57,078 bases of DNA from an uncultured Candidatus Peribacteria bacterium (GTDB lineage: Bacteria > Patescibacteriota > Gracilibacteria > Peribacterales > Peribacteraceae). Shown one piece after another: positions 1 to 53,152 of this stretch. Under the pieces are notes generated by a model. It searched no databases. It was given only the letters and a program-made list of their open reading frames with translations, and was not told where the DNA came from. The stretch covers positions 1-57,078 of the forward strand of contig CAYSVN010000001.1 in NCBI GenBank assembly GCA_964434585.1, written 5' to 3'. A program made the translations under genes and the position numbers. Within the stretch, counting starts at the first letter, position 1; each line of letters starts with the position of its first letter.

Positions 1-160
1 TTTGTAACCAACCCTTCGGCAAGCTCAGGGGTACACAAAAAAGTTTCGCACATGACAATTTTTTGCAGGTGGTTTATTCCAAGTCGTTCGCTATCCTTCT
101 TCGGCGGATTGCCACTCTCTCCTTTGGAAGCCACACAACTCAAAATTCACAGTGCGAGAA
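1..160 (+). repeat. Copy A (5' end cut by window edge) of a ~155-170 nt structured dispersed element; candidate small ncRNA or MITE
   Basis: Aligns with 16159-16311(-), 34342-34495(+) and 36357-36524(-). Shared blocks TTTGTAACC, AAAAAAGTTTCGC, CTTCGGCGGA, GGAAGCCACA and AGTGCGAGA, with paired stems. Confidence 0.7.
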
Positions 161-344
161 TTATGTACCGCATACGAAACAGCATGTTTGAACGAGTATT
201 ATGAGCCTATGATTGATTTCTACTAGGTGGCTGTTAGACAGGTAAAACCTGCAAATAAAACCCTACATCAATCTAAGGAAATCATGAATAGATGCTCATA
301 AACGAAGTGAGCTCTGTTTCGTGATTTTTTTGGTTCGTTTTTGT

Positions 345-366
345 ACCCGCCTACCGGCAGGCAGGT
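345..366. repeat. GC-rich palindrome ACCCGCCTACCGGCAGGCAGGT, an imperfect copy of the one at 33641-33662
   Basis: Direct comparison with the perfect 22-nt palindrome ACCTGCCTGCCGGCAGGCAGGT. Confidence 0.6.
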
Positions 367-390
367 CGACAAAAATGAACATTAATACCT

Positions 391-4802: not shown

Positions 4803-4859
4803 GGGGGTAGTTTAGAGGATTTTTATGAAAATAGGAATATTGGATTAATGTATTTAATA

Positions 4860-4956
4860 TTGCAGGGGTTTAAAATGTGTCAGAAGTGTAAGAAGGGCTA
4901 AAGTTTAAAAGTTTATTAAACCGAGAAACCTTTTACACCTCTGCAACTTCTGCAAC
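4860..4956. repeat. R1: palindromic GTTGCAGAGGT-word element
   Basis: Left arm TTGCAGGGGT..GTCAGAAGT..GTAAGAAGG; right arm CCTTTTACACCTCTGCAACTTCTGCAAC. Lies in the nrdR/aspS divergent spacer. Confidence 0.7.
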
Positions 4957-6825: not shown

Positions 6826-7206
6826 TCACCCTGAGCGAAGACGAAGGGTTGCACTGTGTTGAATAAACATGTGTAGCCTTTTACGAAGGTGATGAGAATC
6901 ATTTTGACATTGTGATAAAATATTAAGCTTATCACTATCATTTTTTATAAGAGCTTTCTTCTTTCTTCGACTCCATTTTTTAATACGTTTTTCCCAATCG
7001 ATAGCATCAAGTACGTATTGAAACGCAGCGGTATACACTAATTGTATTGGTCGTTTCTTAAATGTATAACAAGTAGTATAAAAGCCAAATTGATGTTGCC
7101 ATAATCGCTTTGGTAAATCACTTGTTATGCCAATATAAAAAGAATCATCAACACACTTTAACATATAGACAGTATATTCTTTTTGCATAGGTGAACGATT
7201 ATACAC
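6826..7206 (-). CDS. GIY-YIG nuclease domain protein (small, stand-alone)
   Basis: YTVYMLKCVDDSFYIGITSDLPKRLWQH. The C-terminal tail is encoded by the CCCTGAGC..CGAAGGG mini-palindrome at 6827-6850. Confidence 0.8.
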   Translation of the reverse strand: MYNRSPMQKEYTVYMLKCVDDSFYIGITSDLPKRLWQHQFGFYTTCYTFKKRPIQLVYTAAFQYVLDAIDWEKRIKKWSRRKKKALIKNDSDKLNILSQCQNDSHHLRKRLHMFIQHSATLRLRSG

Positions 7207-9551: not shown

Positions 9552-9623
9552 AAAAAGGTCGGGAGGGGATTGTTTATATATTATAACTGATTAGAAGATT
9601 TAATACTACACATACAGTTAAAT

Positions 9624-9729
9624 GTTGCAGGTGTTGCAAAGGCGTCAGAGGTTAAAGAAGGAGTAAGTTTACTTACATCTTAAATAGCAAAACCTCTGAT
9701 ACGCCTGCAACATCTGTAACCTCTGCAAC
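9624..9729. repeat. R2: palindromic GTTGCAGAGGT-word element
   Basis: GTTGCAGGTGTTGCAAAGGCGTCAGAGGTT ... AACCTCTGATACGCCTGCAACATCTGTAACCTCTGCAAC. Lies in the nusB/lepB divergent spacer. Confidence 0.75.
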
Positions 9730-9783
9730 ATTGAACAGTCTTTCTCATGTGACTTTTTCCTTACTTTCCAGTAAAATGCCTCT

Positions 9784-15969: not shown

Positions 15970-16158
15970 CAGTAATTAAACTGTGAAAGCCAAATGGAAT
16001 ACATTGGAGAAATAAGAAAAACCACTGAGATGAAAAAAGAGAAAATTGGAGATTAATCCAGTTGTCAAAAATAAGGATATTATCTGAAGAATAATTTCAC
16101 TCACTGTGATTAATTAGTGGTCAGTTAAAATAAGTAAGTTTACTATAGGGTTCATTAA

Positions 16159-16311
16159 TTCTCGCACTATCGAGAGGAGCTCTTGTGGCTTCCAAGGGAG
16201 TGAACGGCCATCCGCCGAACGCGATAGTTGACACGACTTGGAATAAGCCACTAAGTAAGCAGCGCAGTGCGAAACTTTTTTGTTACTTTTTTGGTTACAA
16301 AAAAGTAGGGA
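16159..16311 (-). repeat. Copy B of the structured dispersed element
   Basis: The reverse complement aligns over its whole length with copies A, C and D. It ends 20 nt upstream of the ligA start. Confidence 0.75.
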
Positions 16312-16321
16312 AAGAATGTAA

Positions 16322-18529
<2,208 letters not shown>

Positions 18530-20020: not shown

Positions 20021-20431
20021 ATGGATACCACACTTTACTTAACCACGGCCGAACAAGAATTACTAAATAATATTGATGTAACGTTAACAGAAAACTTCTC
20101 TGTAGAAGCAGAAACATTCGGTAAGTATGAAACTATAAAACAGCTGCAAATGCGCCATTTTTTAGCAGACTTTACTGCTTATCCAGAAATTAATACACTT
20201 ATTGAAAAATTAAAAAGTAACCCTACTGACATTACAAAAGAAGACTTAGAAACCATGAACCCTGAGTTCCAAGAAGAGGTTTACTTTGCAATTGGAGCAA
20301 GAGGGGTTGATGTATTTGTGCAAGAACTTATAAAAAATATCTCTGATGAAGATGATATGGAAGCTCTTTGTTTTTTGACAACTGTTCGCCATAAATTACT
20401 CGATATTAACTCAAAATCTAAACATGTTTGA
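20021..20431 (+). CDS. Hypothetical acidic protein; first gene of the giant-protein operon
   Basis: TGTATAAT 8 nt upstream of the ATG; its stop overlaps the next start by 8 nt. Confidence 0.55.
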   Translation: MDTTLYLTTAEQELLNNIDVTLTENFSVEAETFGKYETIKQLQMRHFLADFTAYPEINTLIEKLKSNPTDITKEDLETMNPEFQEEVYFAIGARGVDVFVQELIKNISDEDDMEALCFLTTVRHKLLDINSKSKHV

Positions 20432-21068
20432 TACTGAAAACCTATCTTCGGCAGAAATAAAACGCCTTCAAGAGGCTAGCGAGGTTTATAGAAGTCTTGA
20501 TAGCCGTGAACGTGAAATTCTTGATGCAATTGACAATAGCGTTACCCAGCGCGAGGAATTAGCAGTAAATCTTAAAGACAGACTTAATGGTGAATACCAT
20601 GATGAATTAATTGATCATTTAGCGATGATTCATGAGCAAAAAGAAGCTAAAAAGGAATATACTTCTTGGGGTTATGTTAAAGAAAAAGCAGGCCAAGCTG
20701 CTAAGTGGGCCTGGAAGCATAAATGGTGGATTGCCGGCTTAACAACTGCTGCCATTTTTGGTTATGGTTATTATAGATATGGTGATTTAATGGGAGGAAT
20801 TCAAGTTATGAAAAATATCGGCGGCGGTATTGCAAACATGTATGGCGCCGCAACCGAAAAAATTGGTGGTTTCCTTGGCGGCCTTAAAGAGCGCCTTGGT
20901 GGCCTTTGGGGAGGCGCTGAAGAAATTGCGCAAAAATTACCAGGAGTTCCTGAAATTCCAGGTGGAGTGCTTCCACCAGATGGAGTAATACCGGAAATTC
21001 CAAGTATTCCAGAAGTACCAGTCCCTACTGATGGACTTCCTAGCCTTGGAGACTTTGACGCAACTTAA
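20424..21068 (+). CDS. Hypothetical membrane protein with a Gly-rich and Pro-rich C-terminus
   Basis: Helical N-terminus, TM WWIAGLTTAAIFGYGYY, GG-repeats GGGIANMYGAATEKIGGFLGGLKERLGGLWGG, then PEIP repeats. Confidence 0.55.
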   Translation: MFDTENLSSAEIKRLQEASEVYRSLDSREREILDAIDNSVTQREELAVNLKDRLNGEYHDELIDHLAMIHEQKEAKKEYTSWGYVKEKAGQAAKWAWKHKWWIAGLTTAAIFGYGYYRYGDLMGGIQVMKNIGGGIANMYGAATEKIGGFLGGLKERLGGLWGGAEEIAQKLPGVPEIPGGVLPPDGVIPEIPSIPEVPVPTDGLPSLGDFDAT

Positions 21069-21098
21069 AATCGTTTTTAACACATACAAACTAACATT

Positions 21099-24000
21099 AT
21101 GGCCGATTCGGGAGAAATACCTCAGGACTACGATAGTCTAGAGCGAAAACAACCAACAGCTCCGGTAGTACAACCAGCAGGTGAGGCCGAGCTTCCTCAG
21201 CATGGTGATCTGCTAAGGCAATTGCAGCAAACAATTGAAGCAAAAAATGTTAAGCTTATTGACAAAGAATTATTTGAAGCCTTAGCTTTGTTGGCTGCCT
21301 ATAAAGAAGATTGGAAAGAAGTTGAAGAGCTTCTTAGAATTGATAATTTTCCATCACCTACAAACGAAGGGCGCAAGCAACCAAATTTTACAGTTGATAA
21401 TCGATCGCTTGTAGAATTACACAAAAAATTGCAGCAATTTTTACGCCTTGCACGCTACAAGCACTTAGGTCGTGATGTTGGGCCTGCCTATAACAAAAGA
21501 ACGTTAACCCAAATTCAGAACACAACACTTAAACGAGTTGCGCAATTTTTAGAAGCTAGAAATACATACGTAGAAAAATACTGTAATGCAGATGTATACA
21601 TTTTCAATGAGATGTTAAAAGGGTATTTAGATAATGAGGTTATTCAAAAAAATGCAAATGAAGAATTAAAGAAATTTTTAGTAACAAACTACACACTTGC
21701 ACAGGAGTTAGGTTTGCCTGATATACCGTCTAAATATATTAATGAAGATGTATTACAGCGAATAACAGAAAGAGATGTTCGTGTTATGAAAATTATAGAA
21801 AATTGCATGAGAATAGATAAGAATAAAGAAGGTGAAATTGAAGCTTTTGAAGTAGATAAAAATAAAATAAAACAGTATCTTGAGTCGTTACAACTTGAAG
21901 CTGACCAGCAACAAATTGATGCGTTGTTTTTTATTGTTAAGGTTTTAATTGATGAGGAGAATCATGAGCAGCTTTACCAGGTTTCAGACAGTCTACGTAT
22001 ACCATTTGAAGATATAACCATTACTCAAGCTGCACCTTATTTAAATGAAAAAATGGAAATACTTGATGAACATTTAGGTGGTGCGTTTGAGAAGATTCGT
22101 GGAGCGGTTTCGAAACCAGTACTTAAACGCTACATGGAAGATGGTATTTCATTGCCAAAACTACCAAAGCTTTCAGAATCATTTAAAAAACTTAAGTTCG
22201 AAAACTTGCCAGCAGATGTAAAACTAGAACTAACCAAAGACATAAGAGCAGCTCTAGAAAACAAGCTTAACGATAACATTCCAGATGGGTTTAATACAAT
22301 TGATGATGATAAGTTAGTTGCAGAGATTGGTAATGTTCTCAGCTATATGAAAGGAAATAATACAACATTACTTAGTACGACAGATAGAACTGTTGGAGAA
22401 GAGGAAAACAAGCGTACATTAGAAGGAAAACCAAGTAGTTTTTCTGCGCGTGAGTATTCGATTATGCAAGCTCTTAAAGAATATATTTCTTCGGAAGTTT
22501 CTAGTGAGGCAGTTATTAATTCACTCCTTATTTATAATCGAGACGAGACGGTGCAGAAAAAAATGGTAGAGACCATTACTGATATGCTTACAGATTCATC
22601 TGACTCTCTTTCGCATGATGAAGCATTACAACTTCTTTTCCGTTTAAAATTGTCAGAGAGAGGAACAGGAAAGCCTCAAAGTAGTCCACTTCTTTTAATG
22701 GAAGGTTTACGACTATTACAAAGTCAAGACAGTGTCCTTGTGGACGACCGTAAACAGGGGCAAATTACTATCCAGGCAGCTGGCGAAATTCATATTGCTC
22801 ATGAATTTATGATGATGATTGCAAGAACGGCAGCCTCTGGTAAATTAGAAATCCCCGATGGTATTGAGGTGAGCGATGAAATGATGGACTTCTTAACATA
22901 CCAGGTAGGCCTTGGTGTAGAGCAATACAAAGAAGAGGAAACCACATTATTAGAAACCATAAAAAAATATAAATTACCTATTGCACTTTTTGTTCTTATA
23001 GCTGGTGGAATTGTTTTGTTTAGACCTGGAAAACGAGCAACGGAATTTGCAATTCAGGTAAATCGGGCTAAAATGCAAAACTTTACCCGAGGGACGTTAG
23101 CAGAATTTAAAAAAGCATACCCTAAATTGGCGCAACAGTTTTCTGATGACGAGATAAAAGCTACCAGAAGAATTGCCCGTGAAGTACTGCATGACTATAA
23201 CCAGCTTGAAACTCTAAATTTTCAAAGAAGAGGGGCATTGATTCGTACATTTAACCGTATAAAACAACAACAGGCGTTTGACATGGTAGAGCTGGTAAAA
23301 ACGCTAAAAAATATTAGAAATCCGCGTAGTATTATTGAAAAAATGGCAAACAAAGCCTTTTTGATTACAGATTCTGACCCCGCTTTAGTTGCTAGACTAG
23401 TGAATAAAACAGTAGGCTCACGAGAAGAGCTTACAAGTATTATGAAGCAAGCAGGGTATGCTGATGAAGTTATTAAAGATGCTATTCATGAGCTTGGCGC
23501 AACGAACATTTCTCATTTTGAAAGGCAGGAAAAATTATTTGCAGAAGCCGAAGAATTAATGAAAAGAACTACTAATGTAAGCACTTTAGATGATGCTACG
23601 AGAGCTGCAGAGATCGAAAGTTTAAAGGCTGATTTTAAAAAGCTTTCTACCAATCTAGAGAATGCGGCTGCAGAGATAAATCCTGCGTTTAAAGAGAAGT
23701 TTATTAAGCATCTACAACAAGAGTATCCTCACTTACCTCAGGGGAGCATGTCATCAGTTGATGAAGTTGTTGAGGGAGCGATTAGTGCCGCTCCTCGAAT
23801 TACCCATATTGAACAATTATCTAATATAGATGCTTTTAAAAATCGCCTTACATATATCTTGGAGGAGCTTGATGAAATTAACGCTATGAAAACTGGGAAA
23901 ATTGCACGCCTAAGAGAGTTTAATAAAAATACTGTGCGACCTTTTATGAAAGAACTTGCTGTATTTGAAGTAGACCATCCAACTGTACGTCGAACACTAG

Positions 24001-25712
24001 CAAATCAAATTATGGGAGACGTTATAACAGATGCGGATTGGGATATTATTAAATCCGCCCATGCAGAAACAGACATTGTAAAGAAGTCTGCAAAACTAAA
24101 AGCTCTTGAGCACTCAGTTGCAGATTTACCGCTTAAAGATGAAGCGCGTATTACGAAGCGCAATAATATTAGAAAATTAATGCGCACAGGGATAACAGGG
24201 GAAGTTGCGTTAGATGCTATGATACAACCCAGTACCGTCGATGAGCTTGCAGATGTTCTTAAAGGTTTAAGCCCAAAACATTGGGCACCAAAAATTACTA
24301 CTTACCTTAAGCGTTATCCTGGTCAATTAAATAGTGTTGGCAACATGCTTGATGATACTAGCGTCGTTACTGCAGCTAAACAGGCCGATGGAGTGGCTGA
24401 GTTATCAAGAATCCGATCTGCAGCTGTGCAAACATCACAACTACTAAGGAGAGGGTTTGGTCATGCAATTACAAAAGGTCTCCCTGTCGCCGGGTTTATA
24501 CTTGAAGCTTTTTTAATTCGTAGTACATATAATCAATTGCAAGCCGCAGAGAAACAAGGTGATGGAGCACAAATAGAACTTTTAAAAAGCAAACTTGATA
24601 CTGATGTGCAGGCATTTTCAAGCGAGGTAGTTCTGAGTGGATTTATGTATAGAGCTTCTCAATTAGGACAGCTTGGAGTAAAAACAACAATAGTCGGTGC
24701 TCTAGCTTTAACGGCTGGTCATTTAACAAAAGATGCTCTTTATACTTACGCAGATGAGATAAATAATATGACATATGACCGCTATCGTTCAGAGCGACCA
24801 GACCAAAACCTTCAAACAATAAAAGGTGCTACATTTGCAGCGCTCGTTGACCCAGAAGGTGTACAAAAATATGCCGAGTCAGCTGCTCTAGATGCTTACA
24901 TCGAAAATCTAAACTTAGCGCAGCTCAATGAATTAGACATGCTCTATGGAAGGGAAACATTGGCCTTTAAATTAGCAAAAAGTGAGCATAAATCATACGA
25001 AGAAATATTGAATAGTCAAAACTTACCAAGAGTACTTAAAGAAGAAAAAGAAAGCTTTATAAAAAGAGCAATTGCTGAATTCGTGCAATATAGTGAAGGG
25101 AAAGATCTAGAATGGGGAGAGCGCCTTGAGCAAGCAGTGGCTTACGCAGAACTTAAGCACAAGGAACGTCGTTTAAAATCATTATATGGAGAGAAGGCCT
25201 GGCAGCAGTCTATTGATGGCATGCCTACGCTTCAGGGGGGATTAGATCAATACCCAGTAAAAACAATGACTCCTGACGAAGTATTAACCAATGGTGGTTA
25301 TAACACTCAACTACTTGAGGCTTATAAATATGATCAGGCGGTACAATGGCTTACGGAATTTGAACTTGAAGTTGCAAATTTAAAGACAATTGATAATCAA
25401 CAAGACAGAAGCTTTGCAGAAATAGGTGTCAAAGCGAGGCTATTTACACTGTTCGCTAATGTATTTTTTATACATGATTATCATGTATACCTTTCCAAGG
25501 CACCCAATGGAGAACGTCATATTTATAAGCAAGCAAGCTTTGGACCAGAAGCACATAGGCAATTTGAATCTTTTCTTAAAGAATTAAGTGGTAAAGAACA
25601 TATCGCAAATCGTGTTAAGGCTGTATTAAATTTACAAAATTCTCTGCGAGAAGCCTTTAATCCTGGCAACATAATACTACAAAAAGGTAAAAGTAATTAT
25701 TTTGGAGACTAA
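21099..25712 (+). CDS. Giant (1537 aa) orphan protein, predominantly helical, with about three hydrophobic segments
   Basis: Uninterrupted 4.6-kb ORF; hydrophobic PIALFVLIAGGIVLF, GLPVAGFILEAFLI and TTIVGALALTAGHL; no catalytic motif recognised. Confidence 0.7.
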   Translation: MADSGEIPQDYDSLERKQPTAPVVQPAGEAELPQHGDLLRQLQQTIEAKNVKLIDKELFEALALLAAYKEDWKEVEELLRIDNFPSPTNEGRKQPNFTVDNRSLVELHKKLQQFLRLARYKHLGRDVGPAYNKRTLTQIQNTTLKRVAQFLEARNTYVEKYCNADVYIFNEMLKGYLDNEVIQKNANEELKKFLVTNYTLAQELGLPDIPSKYINEDVLQRITERDVRVMKIIENCMRIDKNKEGEIEAFEVDKNKIKQYLESLQLEADQQQIDALFFIVKVLIDEENHEQLYQVSDSLRIPFEDITITQAAPYLNEKMEILDEHLGGAFEKIRGAVSKPVLKRYMEDGISLPKLPKLSESFKKLKFENLPADVKLELTKDIRAALENKLNDNIPDGFNTIDDDKLVAEIGNVLSYMKGNNTTLLSTTDRTVGEEENKRTLEGKPSSFSAREYSIMQALKEYISSEVSSEAVINSLLIYNRDETVQKKMVETITDMLTDSSDSLSHDEALQLLFRLKLSERGTGKPQSSPLLLMEGLRLLQSQDSVLVDDRKQGQITIQAAGEIHIAHEFMMMIARTAASGKLEIPDGIEVSDEMMDFLTYQVGLGVEQYKEEETTLLETIKKYKLPIALFVLIAGGIVLFRPGKRATEFAIQVNRAKMQNFTRGTLAEFKKAYPKLAQQFSDDEIKATRRIAREVLHDYNQLETLNFQRRGALIRTFNRIKQQQAFDMVELVKTLKNIRNPRSIIEKMANKAFLITDSDPALVARLVNKTVGSREELTSIMKQAGYADEVIKDAIHELGATNISHFERQEKLFAEAEELMKRTTNVSTLDDATRAAEIESLKADFKKLSTNLENAAAEINPAFKEKFIKHLQQEYPHLPQGSMSSVDEVVEGAISAAPRITHIEQLSNIDAFKNRLTYILEELDEINAMKTGKIARLREFNKNTVRPFMKELAVFEVDHPTVRRTLANQIMGDVITDADWDIIKSAHAETDIVKKSAKLKALEHSVADLPLKDEARITKRNNIRKLMRTGITGEVALDAMIQPSTVDELADVLKGLSPKHWAPKITTYLKRYPGQLNSVGNMLDDTSVVTAAKQADGVAELSRIRSAAVQTSQLLRRGFGHAITKGLPVAGFILEAFLIRSTYNQLQAAEKQGDGAQIELLKSKLDTDVQAFSSEVVLSGFMYRASQLGQLGVKTTIVGALALTAGHLTKDALYTYADEINNMTYDRYRSERPDQNLQTIKGATFAALVDPEGVQKYAESAALDAYIENLNLAQLNELDMLYGRETLAFKLAKSEHKSYEEILNSQNLPRVLKEEKESFIKRAIAEFVQYSEGKDLEWGERLEQAVAYAELKHKERRLKSLYGEKAWQQSIDGMPTLQGGLDQYPVKTMTPDEVLTNGGYNTQLLEAYKYDQAVQWLTEFELEVANLKTIDNQQDRSFAEIGVKARLFTLFANVFFIHDYHVYLSKAPNGERHIYKQASFGPEAHRQFESFLKELSGKEHIANRVKAVLNLQNSLREAFNPGNIILQKGKSNYFGD

Positions 25713-33641: not shown

Positions 33642-33662
33642 CCTGCCTGCCGGCAGGCAGGT
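33641..33662. repeat. Perfect 22-nt GC-rich palindrome between rplR and rpsE
   Basis: ACCTGCCTGCCGGCAGGCAGGT; a second, imperfect copy lies at 345-366. Confidence 0.85.
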
Positions 33663-33689: not shown

Positions 33690-34280
33690 ATGTCTAAAAC
33701 TTCTCGTCCAGATCGAAAACAACGTGGTCGCCGCGGTGATCGTCGTAAAGCACCAAAAGAGTTCGAAGAGACTACTATCTCAGTAGATCGTGTAACTCGT
33801 GTGGTAAAAGGTGGACGTCGTATGCGTTTCCGCGCTGTAGTTGTAGTAGGAAATAAAAAAGGTAAGGTTGGTATTGGTACTGGTAAAAGTAACGAAGTAA
33901 TGGGCGCTGTTCAAAAAGCAGTTGAACGTGCTAAAAAAAGTATGATTACTGTTCCAATTATTGATGGATCTATTCCGCACGCTATTGATATTAAATACAA
34001 AGCAGCAAAATTACGTTTCTTGCCTGCACGTGAAGGTACTGGTGTTATTGCTGGTGGTTCGCCTCGTATTATTCTAGAGCACGCTGGTTACAAAAATGTT
34101 CTTAGTAAGCGCTTCGGTACAAACAATAAACTTGTTAATGCACAAGCAGTTATGAAAGCTTTACAAATGCTTCGTGTTCGTCCACAAGATGAAAAAGAAG
34201 TAGTAGAAAGCACTCCAGAAGGAATTGATGTAAAAGTAATGAAAGAAGAAGATGCTGCAACATTAACAGTAGAAGCATAA
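33690..34280 (+). CDS. rpsE: 30S ribosomal protein S5 with N- and C-terminal extensions
   Basis: VDRVTRVVKGGRRMRFRAVVVVGNKKGKVGIGTGKSNEV. Confidence 0.95.
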   Translation: MSKTSRPDRKQRGRRGDRRKAPKEFEETTISVDRVTRVVKGGRRMRFRAVVVVGNKKGKVGIGTGKSNEVMGAVQKAVERAKKSMITVPIIDGSIPHAIDIKYKAAKLRFLPAREGTGVIAGGSPRIILEHAGYKNVLSKRFGTNNKLVNAQAVMKALQMLRVRPQDEKEVVESTPEGIDVKVMKEEDAATLTVEA

Positions 34281-34301
34281 ATTAAAATTACATATTAGGT
34301 T

Positions 34302-34326
34302 AAGAGGCTTCGGCCTCTTTTTTTTA
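34302..34326 (+). terminator. Rho-independent terminator closing the r-protein operon
   Basis: AAGAGGC-TTCG-GCCTCTT followed by a T-run. Confidence 0.8.
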
Positions 34327-34341
34327 TTTGATAGTATTTTC

Positions 34342-34495
34342 TCTCTACTTTTTTGTAACCAAAAAAGTAACAAAAAAGTTTCGCGCTAGACGTTCGGTCG
34401 TAAGTAACTTATTGCAAGTCATTCACTGTCCTTCTTCGGCGGACGGTCGTTCATTCCTTTGCAAGTTACTAGTACGCCCTCTCGGGAGCGCGAGA
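34342..34495 (+). repeat. Copy C of the structured dispersed element
   Basis: TCTCTACTTTTTTGTAACC...AAAAAAGTTTCGCGCT...GTAACTTATTGCAAG...CTTCGGCGGA...TTTGCAAGTTAC...GAGCGCGAGAG. Confidence 0.75.
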
Positions 34496-34533
34496 GATAC
34501 ACATTAAAGAGGAAAGAATCAAGGATTTTCTAT

Positions 34534-34848
34534 TTATTCTTCACTATTGTCAGTGTCCATTTGATTGTTAAGCCATATTTCAAATGCTACAATCTTTACT
34601 ATGTCATAAAAATATTCATCATCTACATCGCTCACATTGTTAAATAGTGCATGCCCACTCTCTCTAACCTTTTGTTTTATTCTGTTTAAAAAAGGCTGTT
34701 TAAGATGTTCTATTTGAGGTTTAACGCTATCAAAATCAAACTCACCTGATGACATCTCTTTACCTATAGCTTCTTCTATTAAGCTTGCCAGCGCTCCGTC
34801 AAAACTATTACCGCCTTTAGGGCTATTGTTATTAGTTGAATCACTCAT
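34534..34848 (-). CDS. Hypothetical acidic protein
   Basis: ORF only. Confidence 0.4.
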   Translation of the reverse strand: MSDSTNNNSPKGGNSFDGALASLIEEAIGKEMSSGEFDFDSVKPQIEHLKQPFLNRIKQKVRESGHALFNNVSDVDDEYFYDIVKIVAFEIWLNNQMDTDNSEE

Positions 34849-34889
34849 ATAACATTATTATAATTAAAAATTATAATATGTCAATTTTT

Positions 34890-36311
34890 CTATAAAGTCT
34901 CTACTTCCTGTCCACCACTAGTATCCAATACATTATAGCCAAGTGCTGCCAAAGCATCGCGTAATTCGTCTGATTTGGCAAAATCTTTATCCTCCCTGGC
35001 CTGTTTACGCATATCTAGCAGTTCCAGTACCTTTTCTGGTAAATCGAGCTTCTGAGGGGCTTCAAAGCAGCCGAAGGTGTAATTTACCATTTGCATAAAA
35101 TGGTGCAGCGAAGCATGTTCATCATCAGTTAAGTCTTTATTACGGCTCCAGGCCATACATTCAAATACGGCTGCTAATGCTCCAGAGGTATTTAAGTCAT
35201 CATTCATGCAGTGTAAAAACTTGGTCATATGGCCGTTAAGGTCATCGCTAAATTGCACGGGCCAGGTACAATGCATACAAACATCAAACTGATGTTCTGC
35301 AAACCAATCGTTAATTTTTTTACGGGCTTTTTTAGCGTCTTCCATGCCTTTCCATTCAAATTTTAACTTTGTACGGTAATGTACACTCATCATTAGATAT
35401 CTAAAGTCGAGTGGGTTAAATCCTTTTTCTTTTATCATTGGGACATCAATAACATTTCCAAGGGACTTACTCATTTTAATATCACCCAAGTCTATATGGC
35501 GTTTATGGAGCCAGTATTTACAGAACTGCTTACCGCTTACTCCTTCACTTTGGGCAATTTCACATTCATGGTGTGGAAAAATATTATCTTCGCCGCCGGT
35601 ATGGATATCAATTTGCTCGCCAAGATGTTTATGAGACATCGCACTGCATTCAATATGCCAACCAGGAAATCCTTCACCCCATGGGCTTGGCCACTTTAAA
35701 ATGTGGTGAGCATTAGTACCAACTAATTTTTTCCATAAAGCAAAATCAACAGGGGAATGCTTGCATTCGTTAATATCAACTCGCGCACCTGCTGTTAAGT
35801 TTTTTACCTTATTCCCACTTAACTGTCCGTAGCGTTCAAACTTAGCAACATCAAAATACACACCGTCATCAGTTTCATAGGCCAAACCTTTTTCTAGCAA
35901 TGCTTCAGTCATGGTAATCATTTCTGCTACATGTTCTGATGCCTTAGGCCGCTCATGCGAAGGTAGAATATTAAGCTCGGCTTCGTCCTCTAGGTACATT
36001 TCAGCATACTTGCTTGCAATTTCTAGCGGATCAATCTGTTCATGTTTTGCTTGTTTTTCTAGTTTGTCCTCACCGTCTTCTGCGTCTGCCACTAAATGTC
36101 CTACGTCGGTAATATTGGTTACTTGTAGCACATTATGCCCACTTACCTCTAGCCAGCGTCGTAGTAAATCAGCCATTAAATAGGCGCTAAAATTACCAAT
36201 GTGTGGTCTTCCATAAACTGTTGGTCCACAGGTATACATCAATACTTTGTCTTTATTAAGAGGTGTAAATTCCTCTAGCTGCCGACTATAAGTATTGTAA
36301 ATTTTTAACAT
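34890..36311 (-). CDS. cysS: Cysteine--tRNA ligase
   Basis: TCGPTVYGRPHIGN (HIGH), CPSPWGEGFPGWHIECS, KMSKSLGN. Confidence 0.96.
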   Translation of the reverse strand: MLKIYNTYSRQLEEFTPLNKDKVLMYTCGPTVYGRPHIGNFSAYLMADLLRRWLEVSGHNVLQVTNITDVGHLVADAEDGEDKLEKQAKHEQIDPLEIASKYAEMYLEDEAELNILPSHERPKASEHVAEMITMTEALLEKGLAYETDDGVYFDVAKFERYGQLSGNKVKNLTAGARVDINECKHSPVDFALWKKLVGTNAHHILKWPSPWGEGFPGWHIECSAMSHKHLGEQIDIHTGGEDNIFPHHECEIAQSEGVSGKQFCKYWLHKRHIDLGDIKMSKSLGNVIDVPMIKEKGFNPLDFRYLMMSVHYRTKLKFEWKGMEDAKKARKKINDWFAEHQFDVCMHCTWPVQFSDDLNGHMTKFLHCMNDDLNTSGALAAVFECMAWSRNKDLTDDEHASLHHFMQMVNYTFGCFEAPQKLDLPEKVLELLDMRKQAREDKDFAKSDELRDALAALGYNVLDTSGGQEVETL

Positions 36312-36356
36312 TTAAAAGTATTGTAGTTTGTTCTAAGTATAAAATACAGTATTCCA

Positions 36357-36524
36357 TCGCGCTCCCGAGAAGGCGTATTGTGGCTTCCAAGGTAGTGAAC
36401 GGCCATCCGCCGAACGCGATAGTTGACGCGACTTGGAGTAAGCCACTTACGACTGAACGTCTAGCGCGAAACTTTTTTGTGTACCCCTGAGCTTGCCGAT
36501 GGGTTGGTTACAAAAAAGTAGAGA
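36357..36524 (-). repeat. Copy D of the structured dispersed element, inverted relative to copy C
   Basis: The reverse complement aligns with A, B and C. It carries the same 22-nt insert (AACCC.TCGGCAAGCTCAGGGG) as copy A. Confidence 0.75.
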
Positions 36525-36585
36525 TAAAAACTGCAATCTCCCATTATCAATATTAAATACTTGTCAGTAAAATTTAGGCAGAAGG

Positions 36586-36873
36586 CTAATCTTCTATACC
36601 AATTTGTGCTTCAATTTGGTTAAGCTCTGTACGCAAAGCATAAACTTCACTTTGGTGCGAACGAATTGCACCCGTGTTTTTAAAAAGTTCACTAAGTCGG
36701 TTTTTAATTTCATGATACCGAATTCTTGATTCTTCTAACAATGCATCGTTTGTAGCAATTTTAATACTATGTTCAGTTTCGGTGGCAGGTTGTTCAGGAG
36801 GCATAATGCAAAAAATCCTACAGAAAACCAGTCCAGACAACAAGTGATAATCATGACAATTGGCATTTACCAT
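36586..36873 (-). CDS. Hypothetical protein (start uncertain; alternative ATG 36804)
   Basis: ORF only; C-terminal half looks like coiled coil. Confidence 0.35.
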   Translation of the reverse strand: MVNANCHDYHLLSGLVFCRIFCIMPPEQPATETEHSIKIATNDALLEESRIRYHEIKNRLSELFKNTGAIRSHQSEVYALRTELNQIEAQIGIED

Positions 36874-36893: not shown

Positions 36894-37559
36894 ATGAAAC
36901 TTAACAAAGAAATTCTTGTATTTTTAAAAGAGCTCGCACTTAATAATAATAAGACATGGTACAACGACCACAAAGACCATTATAAAAAACTAAGAACAGA
37001 GTTTCACGATTGGCTAAACCAAGTAGCAGCAGTAATTGCTATGTTTGACGAGCGAGTACGTGACCATCTAGATAACAAAAAAACAATTAAAGTTTTTAGA
37101 CTACAACGTGATACACGGTTTTCTAAAGGTAAAGATCCTTATAAGCTTAATTTTGGTGGCAGTATTTCTGCTGGAGGCATGGACGAATTAAACCCAGGGT
37201 ATTACCTACATATAGAGCCTGGTAATTGCTTTATAGCCGGTGGACTTTATATGCCAGCTAAGCAAAAGCTTGCAGCCATCCGCGATAAAATGCTTACCGA
37301 CCCTAAAAAAATACGTGCAATTTTAGCCAATAAGCAATTACAGAAACATTTTAGTGGTTTAAGTACAGATGGTGACTTAAAAACTGCCCCCCGCGGATAC
37401 GATAAAGAAGATCCTAATGTAGACTTACTACGCCATAAGCATTTTATTTTATATAAGCAGGTAAAAGATAGCGATGTGTTTAAGTCAAATTTTATAAAAG
37501 ATGTGCTTGATGCCTACAAAGCCATGGAGCCACTACATAGTTATCTTGCTAAGGCTTAA
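36894..37559 (+). CDS. DUF2461 (TIGR02453) family protein
   Basis: NNNKTWYNDHKDHYKK, RDTRFSKGKDPYK, GYYLHIEPG..FIAGGLYMP. Confidence 0.75.
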   Translation: MKLNKEILVFLKELALNNNKTWYNDHKDHYKKLRTEFHDWLNQVAAVIAMFDERVRDHLDNKKTIKVFRLQRDTRFSKGKDPYKLNFGGSISAGGMDELNPGYYLHIEPGNCFIAGGLYMPAKQKLAAIRDKMLTDPKKIRAILANKQLQKHFSGLSTDGDLKTAPRGYDKEDPNVDLLRHKHFILYKQVKDSDVFKSNFIKDVLDAYKAMEPLHSYLAKA

Positions 37560-37563
37560 GTGT

Positions 37564-37946
37564 GACCCGTCTGCGCCTGTCTACGACAGTCTCCGTCGAG
37601 GTCACTTGATATAATATTTAAGGTGTACTATTATACACCCCTATGTTTCATTATGTATACTATTTACAGACGGAAGACAGTTGTCATTGGTATGTTGGAG
37701 TTACAAATAATCTTAAGCGTAGATTATTTGAACATAATAATGGGTTGAGTAGGCATACAAGTAAATATCTACAGCATCAAAAATGGAAATTGATGTCCTA
37801 TTTTGCTTTTCCAGACCGGCGTATCGCAGAAGAATTTGAGGATTACTTAAAATCTCAATCTGGAAGAGAATTTGCTAAAAAACATTTTACTCCATTTGCA
37901 AATGAAGACCTCGACGGAAGACGTCAAAGACGTCTGTAGACGGGTC
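37564..37946 (+). mobile_element. Candidate miniature mobile unit: GIY-YIG ORF bounded by 40-bp terminal inverted repeats
   Basis: 37564-37603 GACCCGTCT[20 nt hairpin]CCGTCGAGGTC versus the reverse complement of 37907-37946 GACCCGTCT[20 nt hairpin]CCGTCGAGGTC. The outer 9+11 nt are identical; the inner hairpins differ by compensatory changes. Confidence 0.55.
37643..37939 (+). CDS. GIY-YIG nuclease domain protein (small, stand-alone)
   Basis: YVYYLQTEDSCHWYVGVTNNLKRRLFEHNNG. The C-terminal LDGRRQRRL is encoded by the right TIR. Confidence 0.8.
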   Translation: MFHYVYYLQTEDSCHWYVGVTNNLKRRLFEHNNGLSRHTSKYLQHQKWKLMSYFAFPDRRIAEEFEDYLKSQSGREFAKKHFTPFANEDLDGRRQRRL

Positions 37947-40903: not shown

Positions 40904-41005
40904 CAGGGGTTTCAAAAGTTGCAGAAGTAAAAGAAGTGTCTCATTTAATAGAAGTATTGAATGAGGCCCTTTTTAAACCTTTGACACCTCTGCCACGTTT
41001 GCAAC
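40903..41005. repeat. R4: palindromic GTTGCAGAGGT-word element
   Basis: ACAGGGGTTTCAAAAGTTGCAGAAGTAAAAGAAGTG ... AAACCTTTGACACCTCTGCCACGTTTGCAAC. Confidence 0.65.
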
Positions 41006-41066
41006 TTAATTACTTTTAAAAGTACGTTAATTCTCATATACTTCACTAACATTTCCCCAACAACAC

Positions 41067-42014: not shown

Positions 42015-42020
42015 ACAAAC

Positions 42021-42126
42021 GTTGCAGAGGTTAAAGAGGTGGCAGAGGTGTAAAAAGTTTCTTACTTTAATAAAGCTATAAAATCACACCTTCTTAAACT
42101 TTTTTAACGCCTGCCACCCCTGCAAC
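42021..42126. repeat. R5: palindromic GTTGCAGAGGT-word element
   Basis: GTTGCAGAGGTTAAAGAGGTGGCAGAGGTGTAAAAAG ... TTAACGCCTGCCACCCCTGCAAC, between convergent genes. Confidence 0.75.
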
Positions 42127-42132
42127 ATTTAT

Positions 42133-48888: not shown

Positions 48889-48984
48889 CCTTTAAATACA
48901 AAAACAGTAACACTTCACATATCACAGTTTTATGCTCTGGATAATATTTAAAGATAGCTATGTATGGTATAATAGTTAGATTTT

Positions 48985-50628
48985 GTGAACAAATTCTCAG
49001 CTTTTCTATCGGCTTTCTTGCTTGTAGCCCTATTAGGTGTAGGTGGTACCGTATTTGCACAAAGTAACTGGGACGCCACCTTAAAAGCTAGTACCGAGGC
49101 GTTTACCATTATTGATGACGCGGATAGCTTAAGTGATATCTACCTACAATTTGGTGAAAACGTAGCAGAAACATTAACGTTTAATTTAGCTAATGACCGT
49201 TTTGAATTTAGTAATGATATATACATAAATGGTAATATTGCTGCTACCGGTAGTTTATTTATTAGTAATGATGGTGTATCAAACGATGCTACTATTATTT
49301 TTGATGAGCTAACTTCAACGAACTTAAGTTATAACTTTGGTAATAATCGTTTTGAATTTAGTAACGATGTATATATAAATGGCGGCCTAGAGGCAGCAGG
49401 ATCTATTACCGGTACAACACTTGCAACAACTACTCTACCAAACTGTGAGACGTTAGAAACCAATAGCGGCGGCCAATTAACCTGTGGTGCCGGTACAGTA
49501 ATTGCTCAAACTGGTTCCTCTTTGGCCACTATTCAAGTACGGCGCAGTAGCGGTAGTGTCTTTACGCTAACAAACCAAGACCAATGGTATCAATTTCCAT
49601 TTACTATTATAGATAGCGAAAGTAATACAGATGTTATTGAACATAATACTACAACCGCTAGCCGTATTGATATTAAAGAAGATGGTTATTATTTCCTTTC
49701 TTACCGTGTAGACCACAATGCTAACGTTAACCATGAACTATGGGCACGTGTCACGCAAAACGGAATAGAAATTCCAGGGTCTTACACCCAAGGAAGAAAC
49801 TTTGGAGGCGAGTTTTCCCCCAATGTTATTAGCGTGGTTTCTTACCTAGAAAATGGTGATTATGTAGAGCTAGAAGTACAACGTAAAACAGTGTTAAATA
49901 TCCAAAATGACACTATTTTAACGGTAACAAAACTTGAAGGCGTTCGTGGGCCAGAAGGCCCGGCGGGAACAGGTGGTTTAACGCAAGCAGAAACAGATGC
50001 GCTTTATGTAAATACCGCCGGAGATACCATGACAGGCGCATTAATAAATACCGTTTCGGTAACTTCTGAATTTATTAATGTGGCCTCAGCGACGCCACCT
50101 ACTTGTAATGTAGCCAATTTTGGTAGGCAGTGGGTCGATAGCGATACGGGTATGTTATACGTTTGCGACCCAAGCCGTACTAAGTGGCTGACACCGGCTG
50201 ACCAAAGCATTTGGGGAGAGCAAAATGGAGCCCAGTGTGTAGCAGGTGATTCTATTGGTAGCGAAGGCGACTGTGTTATTGAGTATGGAAGCTCGGTTGG
50301 GGTAAACCAAGATACAGAAGATAATGCTATCTATTTTCCGCATCCAATAACTATTACTGGTTATGGTTTCTCTAACGATGATAACGACTGTAATACTGGT
50401 ACATTTAGCATTGAAACATGGACAAGTGGCGGCACAGCTACTGATGAACCATTAATATTTGAGGCAGATATTGCAACAGGCATTGGGAATGTAGACACTA
50501 GTCAATCTTCCAATCTTTCTATTGATTTAAGAGGGCAGCAGTATAGAACATTTGGTATTGATAATGATTGCGGCCAAACAATTGATGATTATAATATGAT
50601 TATCTATTATCGCTACCGACATGATTAA
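48985..50628 (+). CDS. Secreted paralog P1: RFEFSNDVYING repeat module x2, C1q/TNF-like jelly-roll, tail-fibre-like GDTMTG motif, Cys-containing C-terminal domain
   Basis: GTG start; signal peptide ...GGTVFAQS; IQVRRSSG...IDIKEDGYYFLSYRV...LENGDYVELEV has C1q-like spacing; GPEGPAGTGG; LYVNTAGDTMTGAL. Confidence 0.7.
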   Translation: MNKFSAFLSAFLLVALLGVGGTVFAQSNWDATLKASTEAFTIIDDADSLSDIYLQFGENVAETLTFNLANDRFEFSNDIYINGNIAATGSLFISNDGVSNDATIIFDELTSTNLSYNFGNNRFEFSNDVYINGGLEAAGSITGTTLATTTLPNCETLETNSGGQLTCGAGTVIAQTGSSLATIQVRRSSGSVFTLTNQDQWYQFPFTIIDSESNTDVIEHNTTTASRIDIKEDGYYFLSYRVDHNANVNHELWARVTQNGIEIPGSYTQGRNFGGEFSPNVISVVSYLENGDYVELEVQRKTVLNIQNDTILTVTKLEGVRGPEGPAGTGGLTQAETDALYVNTAGDTMTGALINTVSVTSEFINVASATPPTCNVANFGRQWVDSDTGMLYVCDPSRTKWLTPADQSIWGEQNGAQCVAGDSIGSEGDCVIEYGSSVGVNQDTEDNAIYFPHPITITGYGFSNDDNDCNTGTFSIETWTSGGTATDEPLIFEADIATGIGNVDTSQSSNLSIDLRGQQYRTFGIDNDCGQTIDDYNMIIYYRYRHD

Positions 50629-50693
50629 AACACAATAAACATACAATGGAAACTAGTTAATATTGTTAAAAAATGGTACAATGGTTAGATCTT

Positions 50694-52310
50694 GTGAACA
50701 AATTCTCAGCTTTCCTATCGGCTTTTGTAATAGTAGAATTATGTAGTGTAGTGCATACCGTATTTGCACAAAGCAACTGGGACGCCACCTTAAAAGCTAG
50801 TACCGAGGCGTTTACTATTATTGATGATTCCGATACACTTAGCGATATTTACTTACAATTTGGTGAAAGCGTAGCAGAAACGTTAACATTCCACCGTACG
50901 AATGATTGGTTTGAATTTAGTAACGATGTTTATATACAAGGAGAGTTAACTACTTCCGGCGTAACAATCTTGCCATTACCAGACTGTGCAAACTTAGTTA
51001 CCAATGGCTCTGGTAGTATTATTTGTGGCAATACAACACAAATAACATTTACCGGTAGCGACTTAGCCGCTGTACAAGTACGTCGAGACACAAATTTAAA
51101 TTTGGCATTAGCTAGTACATGGCTTGATATCACCTTTAATAATACCGATATTGAAAGTAACGTTGCAGCGTTAGAGCACAATGACGTTAATACAGAGATT
51201 ATTGATATCAAACAAGATGGGTACTATATGATTTCGTACCATGTTACGTCGTCTGGAGGTTCTACAACTGGTGTCCAACAGCACGATCTATCAGTCCGAG
51301 TGCTAAAGAATAATGCAGATGTTTTAGAGGGATCTTTAACACGTTCTGCTGAATTTGTGCTGGAATATATTCCAAATACTATTAGTATTTTGGCATTCTT
51401 GCAAAAAGATGATGAAATTAAGCTGCAAGCGCTGCGTGAACTTAACTCACCAAATGAGATTATTGATGAAACAGTCTTTACAATTGTAAGCTTGGAAAGT
51501 GGTGGTTCTAGTGGTTCGTTGCTTCAAGTAGATGCTGATGATTTGTATGTTAATACCACTGGTGATACGATGACAGGAACATTAAATATTGCTAATGGTG
51601 GAGAATTAAATGTAGAAGGTAGTATTACGACCGATTCCAATTTGGGGTTAAATAGCGATGGGGCCGCTGTTGATGTCGGCATACGGTTTGGTGGTCCAGC
51701 AACACAATCACTTGTGTATGCAATAGGAAACACGCGGTTTGAATTTAGTGATGATGTGTATGTAAATGGTAACGCAGCAGTCACAGAAAATTTATTTATT
51801 AACGTTGATGATACTGCCGCAGATGCTAGTATTTCATTTGGGGGAACTACTCCACAAAGCCTATTATACTCTGATGGAAACACTCGGTTTGAATTAAGTG
51901 ATGATACCCAAATTGATGGAGAATTAGGTGTGACAGAAAATATCAACAGTCGCTGTGGAGCCCATGATAGCTTTAGTTTTGAACGTGGTGGTGTAAGCTC
52001 TAATAATTCCTGGGCAGTTGGTAATGGGCAAACACCTTGGGGTGCACCAATGGCTTGTAGCGGAGAAGTAACAGCAATGTCCGCGGTTTGTACGGGCTCA
52101 ATTGGAACCTCGCTCACTGCAGTGCTGCGTAAGAATAACGTTCCAACAACTTGTGTGGTTAATATTGCAGCGACAGTTGGTGATGCAACCTCGGTTGATT
52201 GCAATGAAACATTTGCTGTCGATGATGTATTAGGAATCTATGCTGGAACAGAAACAGGTGCTTGGACAGAATGTGTTGGTACATTTTGGACAAGGTATGA
52301 TATTCAATAG
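50694..52310 (+). CDS. Secreted paralog P2 (start moved to GTG 50694): repeat module, C1q/TNF-like domain, GDTMTG motif, two further repeat modules, Cys-rich C-terminus
   Basis: The 5' ~150 nt are nearly identical to P1. VQVRRDTN...IDIKQDGYYMISYHV; LYVNTTGDTMTGTL; NTRFEFSDDVYVNG and NTRFELSDDTQIDG. Confidence 0.7.
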   Translation: MNKFSAFLSAFVIVELCSVVHTVFAQSNWDATLKASTEAFTIIDDSDTLSDIYLQFGESVAETLTFHRTNDWFEFSNDVYIQGELTTSGVTILPLPDCANLVTNGSGSIICGNTTQITFTGSDLAAVQVRRDTNLNLALASTWLDITFNNTDIESNVAALEHNDVNTEIIDIKQDGYYMISYHVTSSGGSTTGVQQHDLSVRVLKNNADVLEGSLTRSAEFVLEYIPNTISILAFLQKDDEIKLQALRELNSPNEIIDETVFTIVSLESGGSSGSLLQVDADDLYVNTTGDTMTGTLNIANGGELNVEGSITTDSNLGLNSDGAAVDVGIRFGGPATQSLVYAIGNTRFEFSDDVYVNGNAAVTENLFINVDDTAADASISFGGTTPQSLLYSDGNTRFELSDDTQIDGELGVTENINSRCGAHDSFSFERGGVSSNNSWAVGNGQTPWGAPMACSGEVTAMSAVCTGSIGTSLTAVLRKNNVPTTCVVNIAATVGDATSVDCNETFAVDDVLGIYAGTETGAWTECVGTFWTRYDIQ

Positions 52311-52363
52311 ATAGATAAAAAATAGTAAAATTATAAAAAATATGGTATAATAATATAATAATC

Positions 52364-53152
52364 ATGAGAAAATCATTGTTATTATTGGCTGTTTTACTAA
52401 TACCATTAATTAGTGGTATGCATACTGTTGTTGCCAGTAGTTGGAACCCTACGTTAAAAGTAAGCACAGAGCCTTTTACAATTATAGATGATAGTGCTGG
52501 ATTACTAGAAGATATTTACTTACAATTTGGTGATACATTAGCAGAAACATTAATGTTTAACCGTGCTAACAATAGGTTTGAATTTAGTGATGATGTATAT
52601 GTAAATGGTGATATTGAAGCCGCTGGAGTTGTCACAGCATCACAGGCGACATTAACAGGATTGGTAAATTGTTCAAAGTTAAAAACAAACACTTTAGGGC
52701 AAGTCACTTGTAATACCGATCCTTCTATTTTGCATGTTGACACAAGTTCTATTGTAACAACTGGAGCAAACTGGATAACAGCATATTCTGTAGTTATTCC
52801 CGGTGGAACAATTGGTGTGGGCAATGCACTTGATATTGATGTATGGGCAGATAGAACGAGTGGTACCAGCTCAGCAGCATTTAGGGTGCTATATGGTGGA
52901 TCACAAATTGTCGCAATGGGAAATAACGGTAATGACCCAGCCCGTATCGATGTCATGATTAAAGGTGATGGAACTACAAGTGCGCAAAAAGGATTTATGG
53001 ACCACAGTAATTCGGGTAATGGTGGTACAAACCGTGGTAATGTTGCTATTGATTCTACGGTAGACCAAACATTACAAATACAAATTAACCCCAATGTTGA
53101 TACAAACAATTGGACATTTGAATATTTAAGTATTGAAGTTCTAGAGCCGTAA
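52364..53152 (+). CDS. Secreted paralog P3 (short): one repeat module plus a beta-rich C-terminal domain
   Basis: Signal peptide LLAVLLIPLISGMHTVVASS; shared SWNPTLKVSTEPFTIIDD...IYLQFGDTLAETLMFNRANNRFEFSDDVYVNGD. Confidence 0.65.
   Translation: MRKSLLLLAVLLIPLISGMHTVVASSWNPTLKVSTEPFTIIDDSAGLLEDIYLQFGDTLAETLMFNRANNRFEFSDDVYVNGDIEAAGVVTASQATLTGLVNCSKLKTNTLGQVTCNTDPSILHVDTSSIVTTGANWITAYSVVIPGGTIGVGNALDIDVWADRTSGTSSAAFRVLYGGSQIVAMGNNGNDPARIDVMIKGDGTTSAQKGFMDHSNSGNGGTNRGNVAIDSTVDQTLQIQINPNVDTNNWTFEYLSIEVLEP

Follow-up and report, generated by a model that had tools for sequence, protein, structure and literature searches.

The repeats that most closely resemble the one described here are the BOX elements of Streptococcus pneumoniae and the ERIC/IRU elements of enterobacteria, which are 100-200-nt intergenic sequences that form stable hairpins, are modular in construction (boxA/B/C) and lie in either orientation near the ends of genes. 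These elements are co-transcribed with their neighbors and have no transposase of their own. Bacteria of the candidate phyla radiation (CPR) have tiny genomes, for which few non-coding elements or mobile repeats have been described. Here we describe a family of structured repeats in a 57,078-nt stretch of DNA from an uncultured Candidatus Peribacteria bacterium (contig CAYSVN010000001.1 of assembly GCA_964434585.1; the whole stretch is referred to as the window). Direct reading and alignment reveal four copies, A to D, of one element that is 163-178 nt long (hereafter the ~165-nt element). All four are intergenic, two on each strand, and adjoin small species-specific open reading frames (ORFs). 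The element is similar to BOX and ERIC/IRU in being intergenic, in forming a stable hairpin, in having mosaic modules and in occurring in both orientations. It differs from them in that it has no known sequence similarity to them, is known from four copies within 57 kb, resides in a CPR host, and contains an invariant non-palindromic apical motif together with an extra AT hairpin and an attached U/A tract. The element also resembles miniature inverted-repeat transposable elements (MITEs), such as Correia/NEMIS of Neisseria, and the Rickettsia palindromic elements (RPEs), as it is short, non-coding, hairpin-forming, dispersed and variably present among relatives; a further likeness to the RPEs is a GTTGCAG-related hairpin located in frame inside ligA of this genome. 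In contrast to MITEs, the ~165-nt element was not found to have a target-site duplication or sharp terminal inverted repeats, and it has no known autonomous partner.

The four copies were first noticed in a first-pass annotation made from the DNA letters and their translated reading frames, and an nhmmer profile, a covariance model and direct reading all place them at essentially the same positions. The profile built from the copies detects all four with E-values of 1e-47 to 4e-58 and nothing else, while the covariance model (R1), run over the window with its filters off, recovers the same four at 140-202 bits, the next match having an E-value of 0.15. An invariant 15-mer, ACAAAAAAGTTTCGC, occurs exactly four times, as compared to an expectation of 0.34. 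The sequence observation is correct and lies well above chance. Pairwise, the copies are 73-83% identical (17-27% diverged). The ~165-nt element is a real, undescribed family in a CPR bacterium, which is most likely a structured repeat and less likely a new RNA gene or an inversion switch. The explanation that we favor, with about even confidence, is that it represents a lineage-specific, modular and recombining structured intergenic repeat of the MITE/BOX/ERIC-like kind, which plausibly acts as a terminator-like module at the 3' ends of transcription units.

Each copy is composed of an AT hairpin (P1, also called H) and an irregular long hairpin of ~110 nt that contains a closing helix (P2), a variable connector, a second helix with a 3-nt bulge (P3) and a conserved apex (Table 1). 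In copy D, as in copy A, the P1 loop holds a 22-nt GC mini-hairpin, and in copies B and C the sequence CAAAAAAGT within this loop is a possible alternative pairing partner. Viewed as MITE-style ends, the arms of the long hairpin (P2/P3) are imperfect inverted repeats, outside of which lie the asymmetric P1 and a ~14-nt conserved 5' flank. The helices vary in a manner that preserves pairing. P2 reads TCGCGCT/AGCGCGA in C and D vs TCGCACT/AGTGCGA in A and B, one pair having changed from G-C to A-T, while P3 reads GTGGCTT-ayt-CCAAG/CTTGG-AAGCCAC in A, B and D vs GTAACTT-att-GCAAG/TTTGC-AAGTTAC in C, with three pairs altered on both sides. The connector helices between P2 and P3 differ in sequence and still pair (AATTTT/AAAATT in A, CGTA/TACG in C and D), and at the apex two variants surround the invariant motif TTCGGCGGA. 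Every sequence detail of the AT stem, the P2 switch, the P3 double changes and the apical variants listed in the first-pass annotation is present in the DNA.

The fold is conserved through compensatory change, as had been proposed. In the four-sequence alignment 95% of the paired cells are complementary and 9 of the 41 pairs show double-sided changes, figures that rest on four related sequences in which the double changes are partly co-inherited within recombined modules and hence reflect few independent events. None of 500 column shuffles matches this result, and sliding the partners by 1-3 columns leaves 40-48% paired. Single copies also fold better than shuffled sequences (z-scores of -4.35 and -3.41 as RNA and -4.65 as DNA), and the three single-nucleotide polymorphisms (SNPs) that same-strain assemblies display in copies B-D are all at unpaired positions. 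Selection or hairpin-templated repair maintains the complementarity of the arms. The modules themselves are distributed as a mosaic in the alignment, with the 22-nt insert common to A and D, the core common to B and D, and the spacers common to C and D; as anticipated from this sharing, the copies have exchanged modules by recombination or gene conversion. A coding element was considered and rejected, as the open frames differ between copies and start codons are missing.

The fate of the element in relatives was followed on contigs that were reached through protein clusters of the window's own proteins. These comprise same-strain contigs from other samples (at least 99% identical; L028-L030, L033 and L041-L043), contigs of a sister species (75-90% DNA identity; L025-L027, L031-L032 and L044-L045), and L046, from a third relative that is more distant. 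In the same-strain contigs the copies are found at identical places, and the L041 and L042 assemblies break at copy C, as expected at repeats. The missing 5' end of copy A, CTCTTGACTTT, is supplied by L028 (99% identical), which shows that the copy starts 7 nt past the stop codon of an FAD/NAD-binding oxidoreductase gene, a gene visible in this contig only. In the sister species none of the four orthologous sites holds an intact copy. The D site, upstream of cysS, instead contains a 256-aa ORF and a 75-nt spacer. At the B site, upstream of ligA, the covariance model with filters off finds no copy, and a GC-rich hairpin of a sister-specific family is located there; this locus was reached through rpmH, as a search for ligA homologs gave no sister ortholog closer than 55%. 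The A site, between the oxidoreductase and NUDIX genes, has no copy and holds two head-to-head units, one of them inverted, of a second module that we call ext. At the C site, between the S5 gene and cysS, the element is reduced to its 3' ~55 nt, which are of the B type and are fused to an ext unit. Presence and absence thus vary as among MITEs, with B and D absent, A replaced and C truncated, and there is no clean empty site, as the surrounding DNA also differs. The lack of intact orthologous copies is the behavior of a decaying, recombining repeat and unlike that of a conserved gene, while the stump at the S5-cysS locus indicates that the family is older than the split of the two species.

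The copies sit at junctions where gene content differs from that of the sister species. From the P2 end of copy B it is 185 nt to the 3' end of a species-specific 201-aa ORF, and from that of copy C it is 38 nt to the 3' end of a 104-aa ORF, which is unrelated to the 104-aa ORF near the sister's A locus. None of the small flanking ORFs belongs to a Pfam or PHROG family. Copies C and D bracket cysS and the 104-aa ORF, as the first-pass annotation had stated, whereas the gap that it left between D and the plus-strand gene at 36894 holds an overlooked 95-aa ORF on the minus strand. The r-protein (ribosomal protein) operon beside C ends at the S5 gene with a canonical terminator (region 33690-34326) and does not run on into L15 and secY, cysS and small species-specific ORFs coming next; the sister species has an identical break of the operon after S5. 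The sister-specific GC-rich hairpin family, CCTCTCCC(C)RGCC(C)TCTCC-loop-GGAGAGG... (L026 ~2640-2700, L031 ~1784-1813 and L044 ~1150-1185), occupies sites after the S5 terminator and upstream of ligA, like those of the ~165-nt element in the window.

Searches of wider scope returned no further members. Rfam 15, whose families include T-box, 6S, SRP, tmRNA, RNase P and ribozymes, reports two tRNAs only when run over the whole window at the gathering threshold, and in E-value mode over C-D and over copy A with its ext module the best E-value is 0.11, all matches being far under the gathering scores; the check with cmsearch therefore agrees with the first-pass annotation that the element matches no known RNA family. 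Two invariant blocks used as exact patterns retrieved 16 GTDB stretches and 8 JGI metagenome stretches, all of which are chance occurrences as judged by nhmmer and inspection. A scan of viral contigs gave 7 stretches, each rejected by the covariance model, and blastn against plasmids and phages gave no match. Likewise, to catch spurious ORFs annotated in other copies, the open translations of A to D in all six frames were joined into one chimeric query, for which a protein database yielded no matches, and the literature on structured repeats of CPR bacteria or Peregrinibacteria contained nothing relevant that we could find. The family is so far confined to this species. Its setting is a housekeeping region of an uncultivated CPR bacterium that has no near relatives among sequenced genomes, with an r-protein operon, several aminoacyl-tRNA synthetase genes, ligA, relA, pyrG and others; the products of cysS and ligA are closest, at 55-61% identity, to proteins named Peregrinibacteria, Peribacteria or Patescibacteria. 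Recoding of UGA (genetic code 4 or 25) was rejected for this genome, as reading through TGA does not make the real genes longer; stop-codon usage is standard.

The fold is almost purely Watson-Crick and strand-symmetric. The alifold consensus is near-equal on both strands (-36.3 vs -36.8 kcal/mol), and G-U and A-C cells number 2 vs 2 in helices predicted on both strands; an excess of G-U pairs (8 vs 2) that had seemed to favor the forward strand, on which the element was first read, was discarded as an artefact of single-strand structure prediction. With folding equal on the two strands and G-U pairs unbiased, the data favor neither RNA nor DNA, and neither strand as the transcribed one. The copies are not preceded by a conserved promoter on either strand, and a simple terminator scan finds no terminator after B, C and D on the forward strand. 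These features, together with the strand-equal fold, leave the discrete RNA gene that the first-pass annotation had considered unsupported.

On the reverse strand, GCGAAAC-TTTTTT-GT directly follows P2 in 4/4 copies, the order being the GC-rich closing helix P2, at once CUUUUUUGU, and then H. The same layout of long hairpin, U-tract and AT hairpin is found in ext, a second long hairpin (~160 nt) located directly downstream of copy A. Its closing stem, TACGAAACAG/CTGTTTCGTG (also given as UACGAAACAG/CUGUUUCGUG), is followed by a U7 tract (ATTTTTTTGG, ATTTTTTT, AUUUUUUUGG) and by an H-type AT hairpin, TTCGTTTTTGT ... ACAAAAATGAA, which is of the TTTTTGT...ACAAAAA type like P1 and has a 20-nt GC palindrome in its loop. 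The ext module shows 5 compensated pairs among 3 sequences and folds better on the U-tract strand (-42.3 vs -34.7). It is kept at the orthologous site in the sister species, downstream of the NUDIX gene, where a diverged inverted paralogue accompanies it, and a further unit follows the stump of the element between the sister's S5 gene and cysS. Neither a conserved ORF nor an Rfam match was found in ext, which is a candidate small RNA (sRNA) or terminator module in its own right. As the element and ext have the same layout, the A locus in both species amounts to two such units arranged head to head between convergent genes.

On account of this layout, a terminator-like role is proposed for the ~165-nt element. 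It is similar to an intrinsic terminator in that its reverse strand presents the GC-rich P2 and then U6 in 4/4 copies, and in that 3/4 copies are found where a co-directional gene ends, no canonical terminator intervening (this is NUDIX for A, with ext in between, the 201-aa ORF for B and the cysS/104-aa operon for C). It is different in that its 'loop' is a structured ~100 nt as compared to 3-10 nt, and in that the second AT hairpin can sequester the U tract. We infer that the constraint is exerted on nucleic acid in single-stranded form, most probably on transcripts that read through from neighboring genes. In these, on the strand opposite to that of the first-pass annotation, the modules would function as hairpins that resemble terminators or protect 3' ends; their predicted targets are NUDIX for copy A, the 201-aa ORF for copy B and the cysS/104-aa operon for copy C. 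The modules may also insulate leaderless-type promoters located just beyond. The cysS and ligA genes have no Shine-Dalgarno sequence and carry a TACAAT or TACACT box 6-8 nt ahead of the start codon, which suggests that mRNAs in this lineage are leaderless. With promoters of this apparent kind, a tight insulator between transcription units would make sense. If the terminator-like reading is true, modular and exchangeable long hairpins would end and insulate transcription units in such organisms, beside apparently leaderless promoters.

Several observations weigh against this explanation. In reverse orientation copy D has no co-directional gene, and on the forward strand a count of co-orientation with the upstream gene likewise gives 3/4. 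The long hairpin with its ~100-nt structured 'loop' far exceeds the canonical form of a terminator, and the simple scan does not report the P2-U6 unit. On the side of dispersal, inspection of the flanks of A (via L028), B, C and D reveals no target-site duplication, no clean terminal inverted repeats were found at the element boundaries, and there is no transposase in the window; the four known copies are moreover all old, as their divergence attests. Finally, a plain hairpin role leaves the invariant, partly unpaired TTCGGCGGA and the conserved bulge unexplained, and these two features point to a specific binding partner.

Table 1. Positions of the ~165-nt element, its helices and associated features. 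Coordinates refer to the window unless a contig of a relative is named.
Feature	Position	Strand	Remarks
Copy A	1..163	+	first ~11 nt lost to window start; 22-nt GC mini-hairpin in P1 loop
Copy B	16152..16314	-	P1 end ~17 nt from GTG start of ligA (divergent); read on the reverse strand, ends ~35 nt before ligA
Copy C	34339..34501	+	after canonical terminator of S5 gene (34302-34326)
Copy D	36350..36527	-	between 95-aa ORF (36586-36873, minus) and cysS start (36311, minus)
Segment bracketed by C and D	34534..36311	-	104-aa hypothetical ORF (34534-34848, species-specific) and cysS (34890-36311)
P1 / hairpin H of copy C	34347..34379	+	ACTTTTTTGT ... ACAAAAAAGT; stem invariant in all copies
P2 5' strand of copy C	34380..34387	+	TTCGCGCT; pairs with 34487-34494
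P2 3' strand of copy C	34487..34494	+	AGCGCGAG
P3 5' strand of copy C	34404..34418	+	GTAACTT, bulge ATT (3 nt), GCAAG; pairs with 34458-34469 (TTTGC AAGTTAC)
Invariant apical motif TTCGGCGGA	34435..34443 in C; 100-108 in A; 16211-16219 in B; 36406-36414 in D	+ (C, A); - (B, D)	conserved in all copies
ext module	168..385	+	directly downstream of copy A; second long hairpin (~160 nt)
ext units in sister species	L031 2616-2806, 2825-3020; L026 2276-2455	-, +; -	
TACAAT/TACACT boxes	window 36312-36330; L044 1087-1110; L046 1896-1925; L026 790-818		cysS, ligA
GTTGCAG...CTGCAAC copies	4856-4951, 9616-9732, 40904-41007, 42035-42129		window

Among the alternatives, the one that survives best is that the copies are paralogous genes for trans-acting sRNAs of ~160 nt with promoters of their own, in which the apical single-stranded UUCGGCGGA would serve as a seed or protein-binding site. 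We regard this as unlikely. Compensatory changes alongside conserved unpaired motifs and a conserved bulge position are what such genes would display, and the same-strain SNPs avoid paired positions. In A, B and C the conserved 5' boundary is preceded, at a distance of 7-9 nt, by weak -10-like hexamers of the TAnnnT type, a TTTACT-17-GATAAT match is located just upstream of D, and copy A could use the terminator of ext. However, these promoter-like sites are not conserved between copies, and B, C and D have no terminator on that strand, nor is there strand asymmetry in G-U pairs or folding energy. The sister species keeps no copy at an orthologous site, no Rfam family is matched, and four copies per 57 kb would be unusual for an sRNA in a small CPR genome.

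An improbable alternative is that the ~165-nt element depends on a mobile element encoded at another place in the genome, of which it would be a non-autonomous derivative or the RNA component, either as a palindrome-associated element of the IS200/IS605 type moved as single-stranded DNA or as a stand-alone scaffold like the omega and bridge guide RNAs, with the variable flank as the guide. Similar to IS200/IS605 elements and TnpB omega-RNAs, it has hairpin-based ends, no target-site duplication, a structured non-coding unit of ~150 nt and a variable flank, the latter beginning right beyond the conserved P2 end. Hairpin H is subterminal, ~7-14 nt inward of the conserved 5' boundary, presence or absence varies between species, and at the A locus each end of the composite H-core-ext-H (~400 nt) carries an H-type hairpin, both in the same direction. 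That composite is the only case, however, as in B, C and D just one of the ends has a hairpin, and the left junction has no conserved tetra- or pentanucleotide and no motif distinct from the element's conserved flank. The associated TnpB, IscB or IS110-like gene envisaged in the first-pass annotation is not found by Pfam in the window, where no transposase or recombinase gene was detected either, and no TnpA, TnpB, IscB or IS110 Pfam family is present among the called genes of the relatives' fetched contigs. Neither at gathering nor in E-value mode is there a match to the transposon-associated RNA families held in Rfam. If the elements are mobile, they would mark hotspots of gene turnover in a reduced genome. 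We give similarly little weight to the possibility of a previously unknown structured RNA class of a CPR lineage, for instance a scaffold or guide RNA that is present in several copies and partnered with an unlinked protein such as a nuclease, recombinase or regulator; if such a class were real, UUCGGCGGA and the bulge would be protein contacts and the variable sequence by P2 would confer specificity.

The first-pass annotation also raised the idea that the segment with cysS and the 104-aa ORF can be inverted by recombination between C and D, which we judge to be very improbable. The two copies are indeed mutually inverted, with 74% identity over ~175 nt, and the genes between them run opposite to the neighboring ones. 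However, the sister species, which has no D, keeps the same relative orientations of S5(+), cysS(-) and DUF2461(+), so that gene orientation is independent of the C/D pair. The same-strain contigs L033, L041, L042 and L043 show only the window's arrangement at the C/D junctions; the D junction is spanned by L033 and L041, whereas only L043 extends well into C, as L041 and L042 stop ~15 bases inside it. There is no recombinase gene near C-D in the window, and 74% identity with indels makes the pair a poor substrate for homologous inversion. Least credible of all is a cis-regulatory leader RNA (T-box-like or r-protein-type) controlling cysS, which copy D brings to mind by lying 40 nt upstream of this gene on the same strand. 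None of the other three copies precedes a co-directional gene, neither T-box nor any other leader family is matched, and alaS and aspS, which are also in the window, are without a copy. Downstream of D, 8 nt ahead of its ATG, cysS is equipped with a TACAAT box of its own, and the sister's cysS lacks the element.

The favored structured intergenic repeat is not the only hairpin family in this DNA, as the 57-kb housekeeping stretch holds at least three unrelated hairpin-repeat families (the ~165-nt element, ext and GTTGCAG) along with a repeated 20-nt GC palindrome, and the folds of the ~165-nt element and of ext are both kept through compensatory change. Insertions that form hairpins plainly accumulate in this genome. 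In practical terms the gain is modest, and consists of a new covariance model for annotating the lineage and a caution about assembly breaks at repeats. The GTTGCAG...CTGCAAC family comprises ~100-nt hairpins in four intergenic copies with the ends GTTGCAGG.GT ... ACCTCTGCAAC, some of them followed by a T-rich run. Its copy in the nrdR-aspS spacer (4856-4951) has a counterpart in the sister species, where a member is present in the same spacer (L031 6810-6876). The 20-nt GC-rich palindrome CCTGCCTGCCGGCAGGCAGG is located at 33642-33661 in the L18-S5 spacer, which by gene coordinates is ~20 nt longer than the sister's, and a variant, CCCGCCTACCGGCAGGCAGG, occupies 346-365, within the loop of the hairpin that ends ext, and is missing from the sister's ext hairpin. 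It looks like a mobile mini-palindrome, to which the 22-nt P1 insert of A and D (ACCCWTCGGCAAGCTCAGGGGT) may be related.

The ligA gene (16331-18529, plus strand), which diverges from copy B, displays two peculiarities. After the sequence LVYEK in the LigA adenylation domain it contains a hypervariable, lineage-specific insert of ~30 aa (16714-16800) that is absent from more distant homologues. The DNA of this insert is a hairpin (arms 16739-16754 and 16773-16788) that is 88% identical over 41 nt to the GTTGCAG...CTGCAAC repeat at 42017-42057, and it constitutes an in-frame insertion of a hairpin repeat in a coding gene. In addition, an in-frame TAG at 17351-17353 occupies the conserved Ser position of KAPRW[S]RAYKFP. 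All same-strain assemblies contain this TAG, and ligA is called as two pieces of 340 + 378 aa; the sister (L044) and L046 have Ser at this position, the L046 ORF being unbroken over at least 631 aa. The TAG could reflect a split or pseudogenised essential gene, or stop-codon read-through.

Other features of the window were noted in passing. Consecutive ORFs of 136, 214 and 1537 aa without a Pfam family are located at 20021-25712, upstream of the r-protein genes that start at 25891. The region 48964-52616 holds three ORFs side by side, of 547, 545 and 262 aa and without a Pfam family, whose N-terminal DNA segments are 72-81% identical, which identifies them as a tandem paralogous gene family. 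Two small stand-alone GIY-YIG proteins are also encoded, one of 126 aa at 6826-7206 on the minus strand and one of 98 aa at 37643-37939 on the plus strand, the latter ~1.1 kb from copy D.

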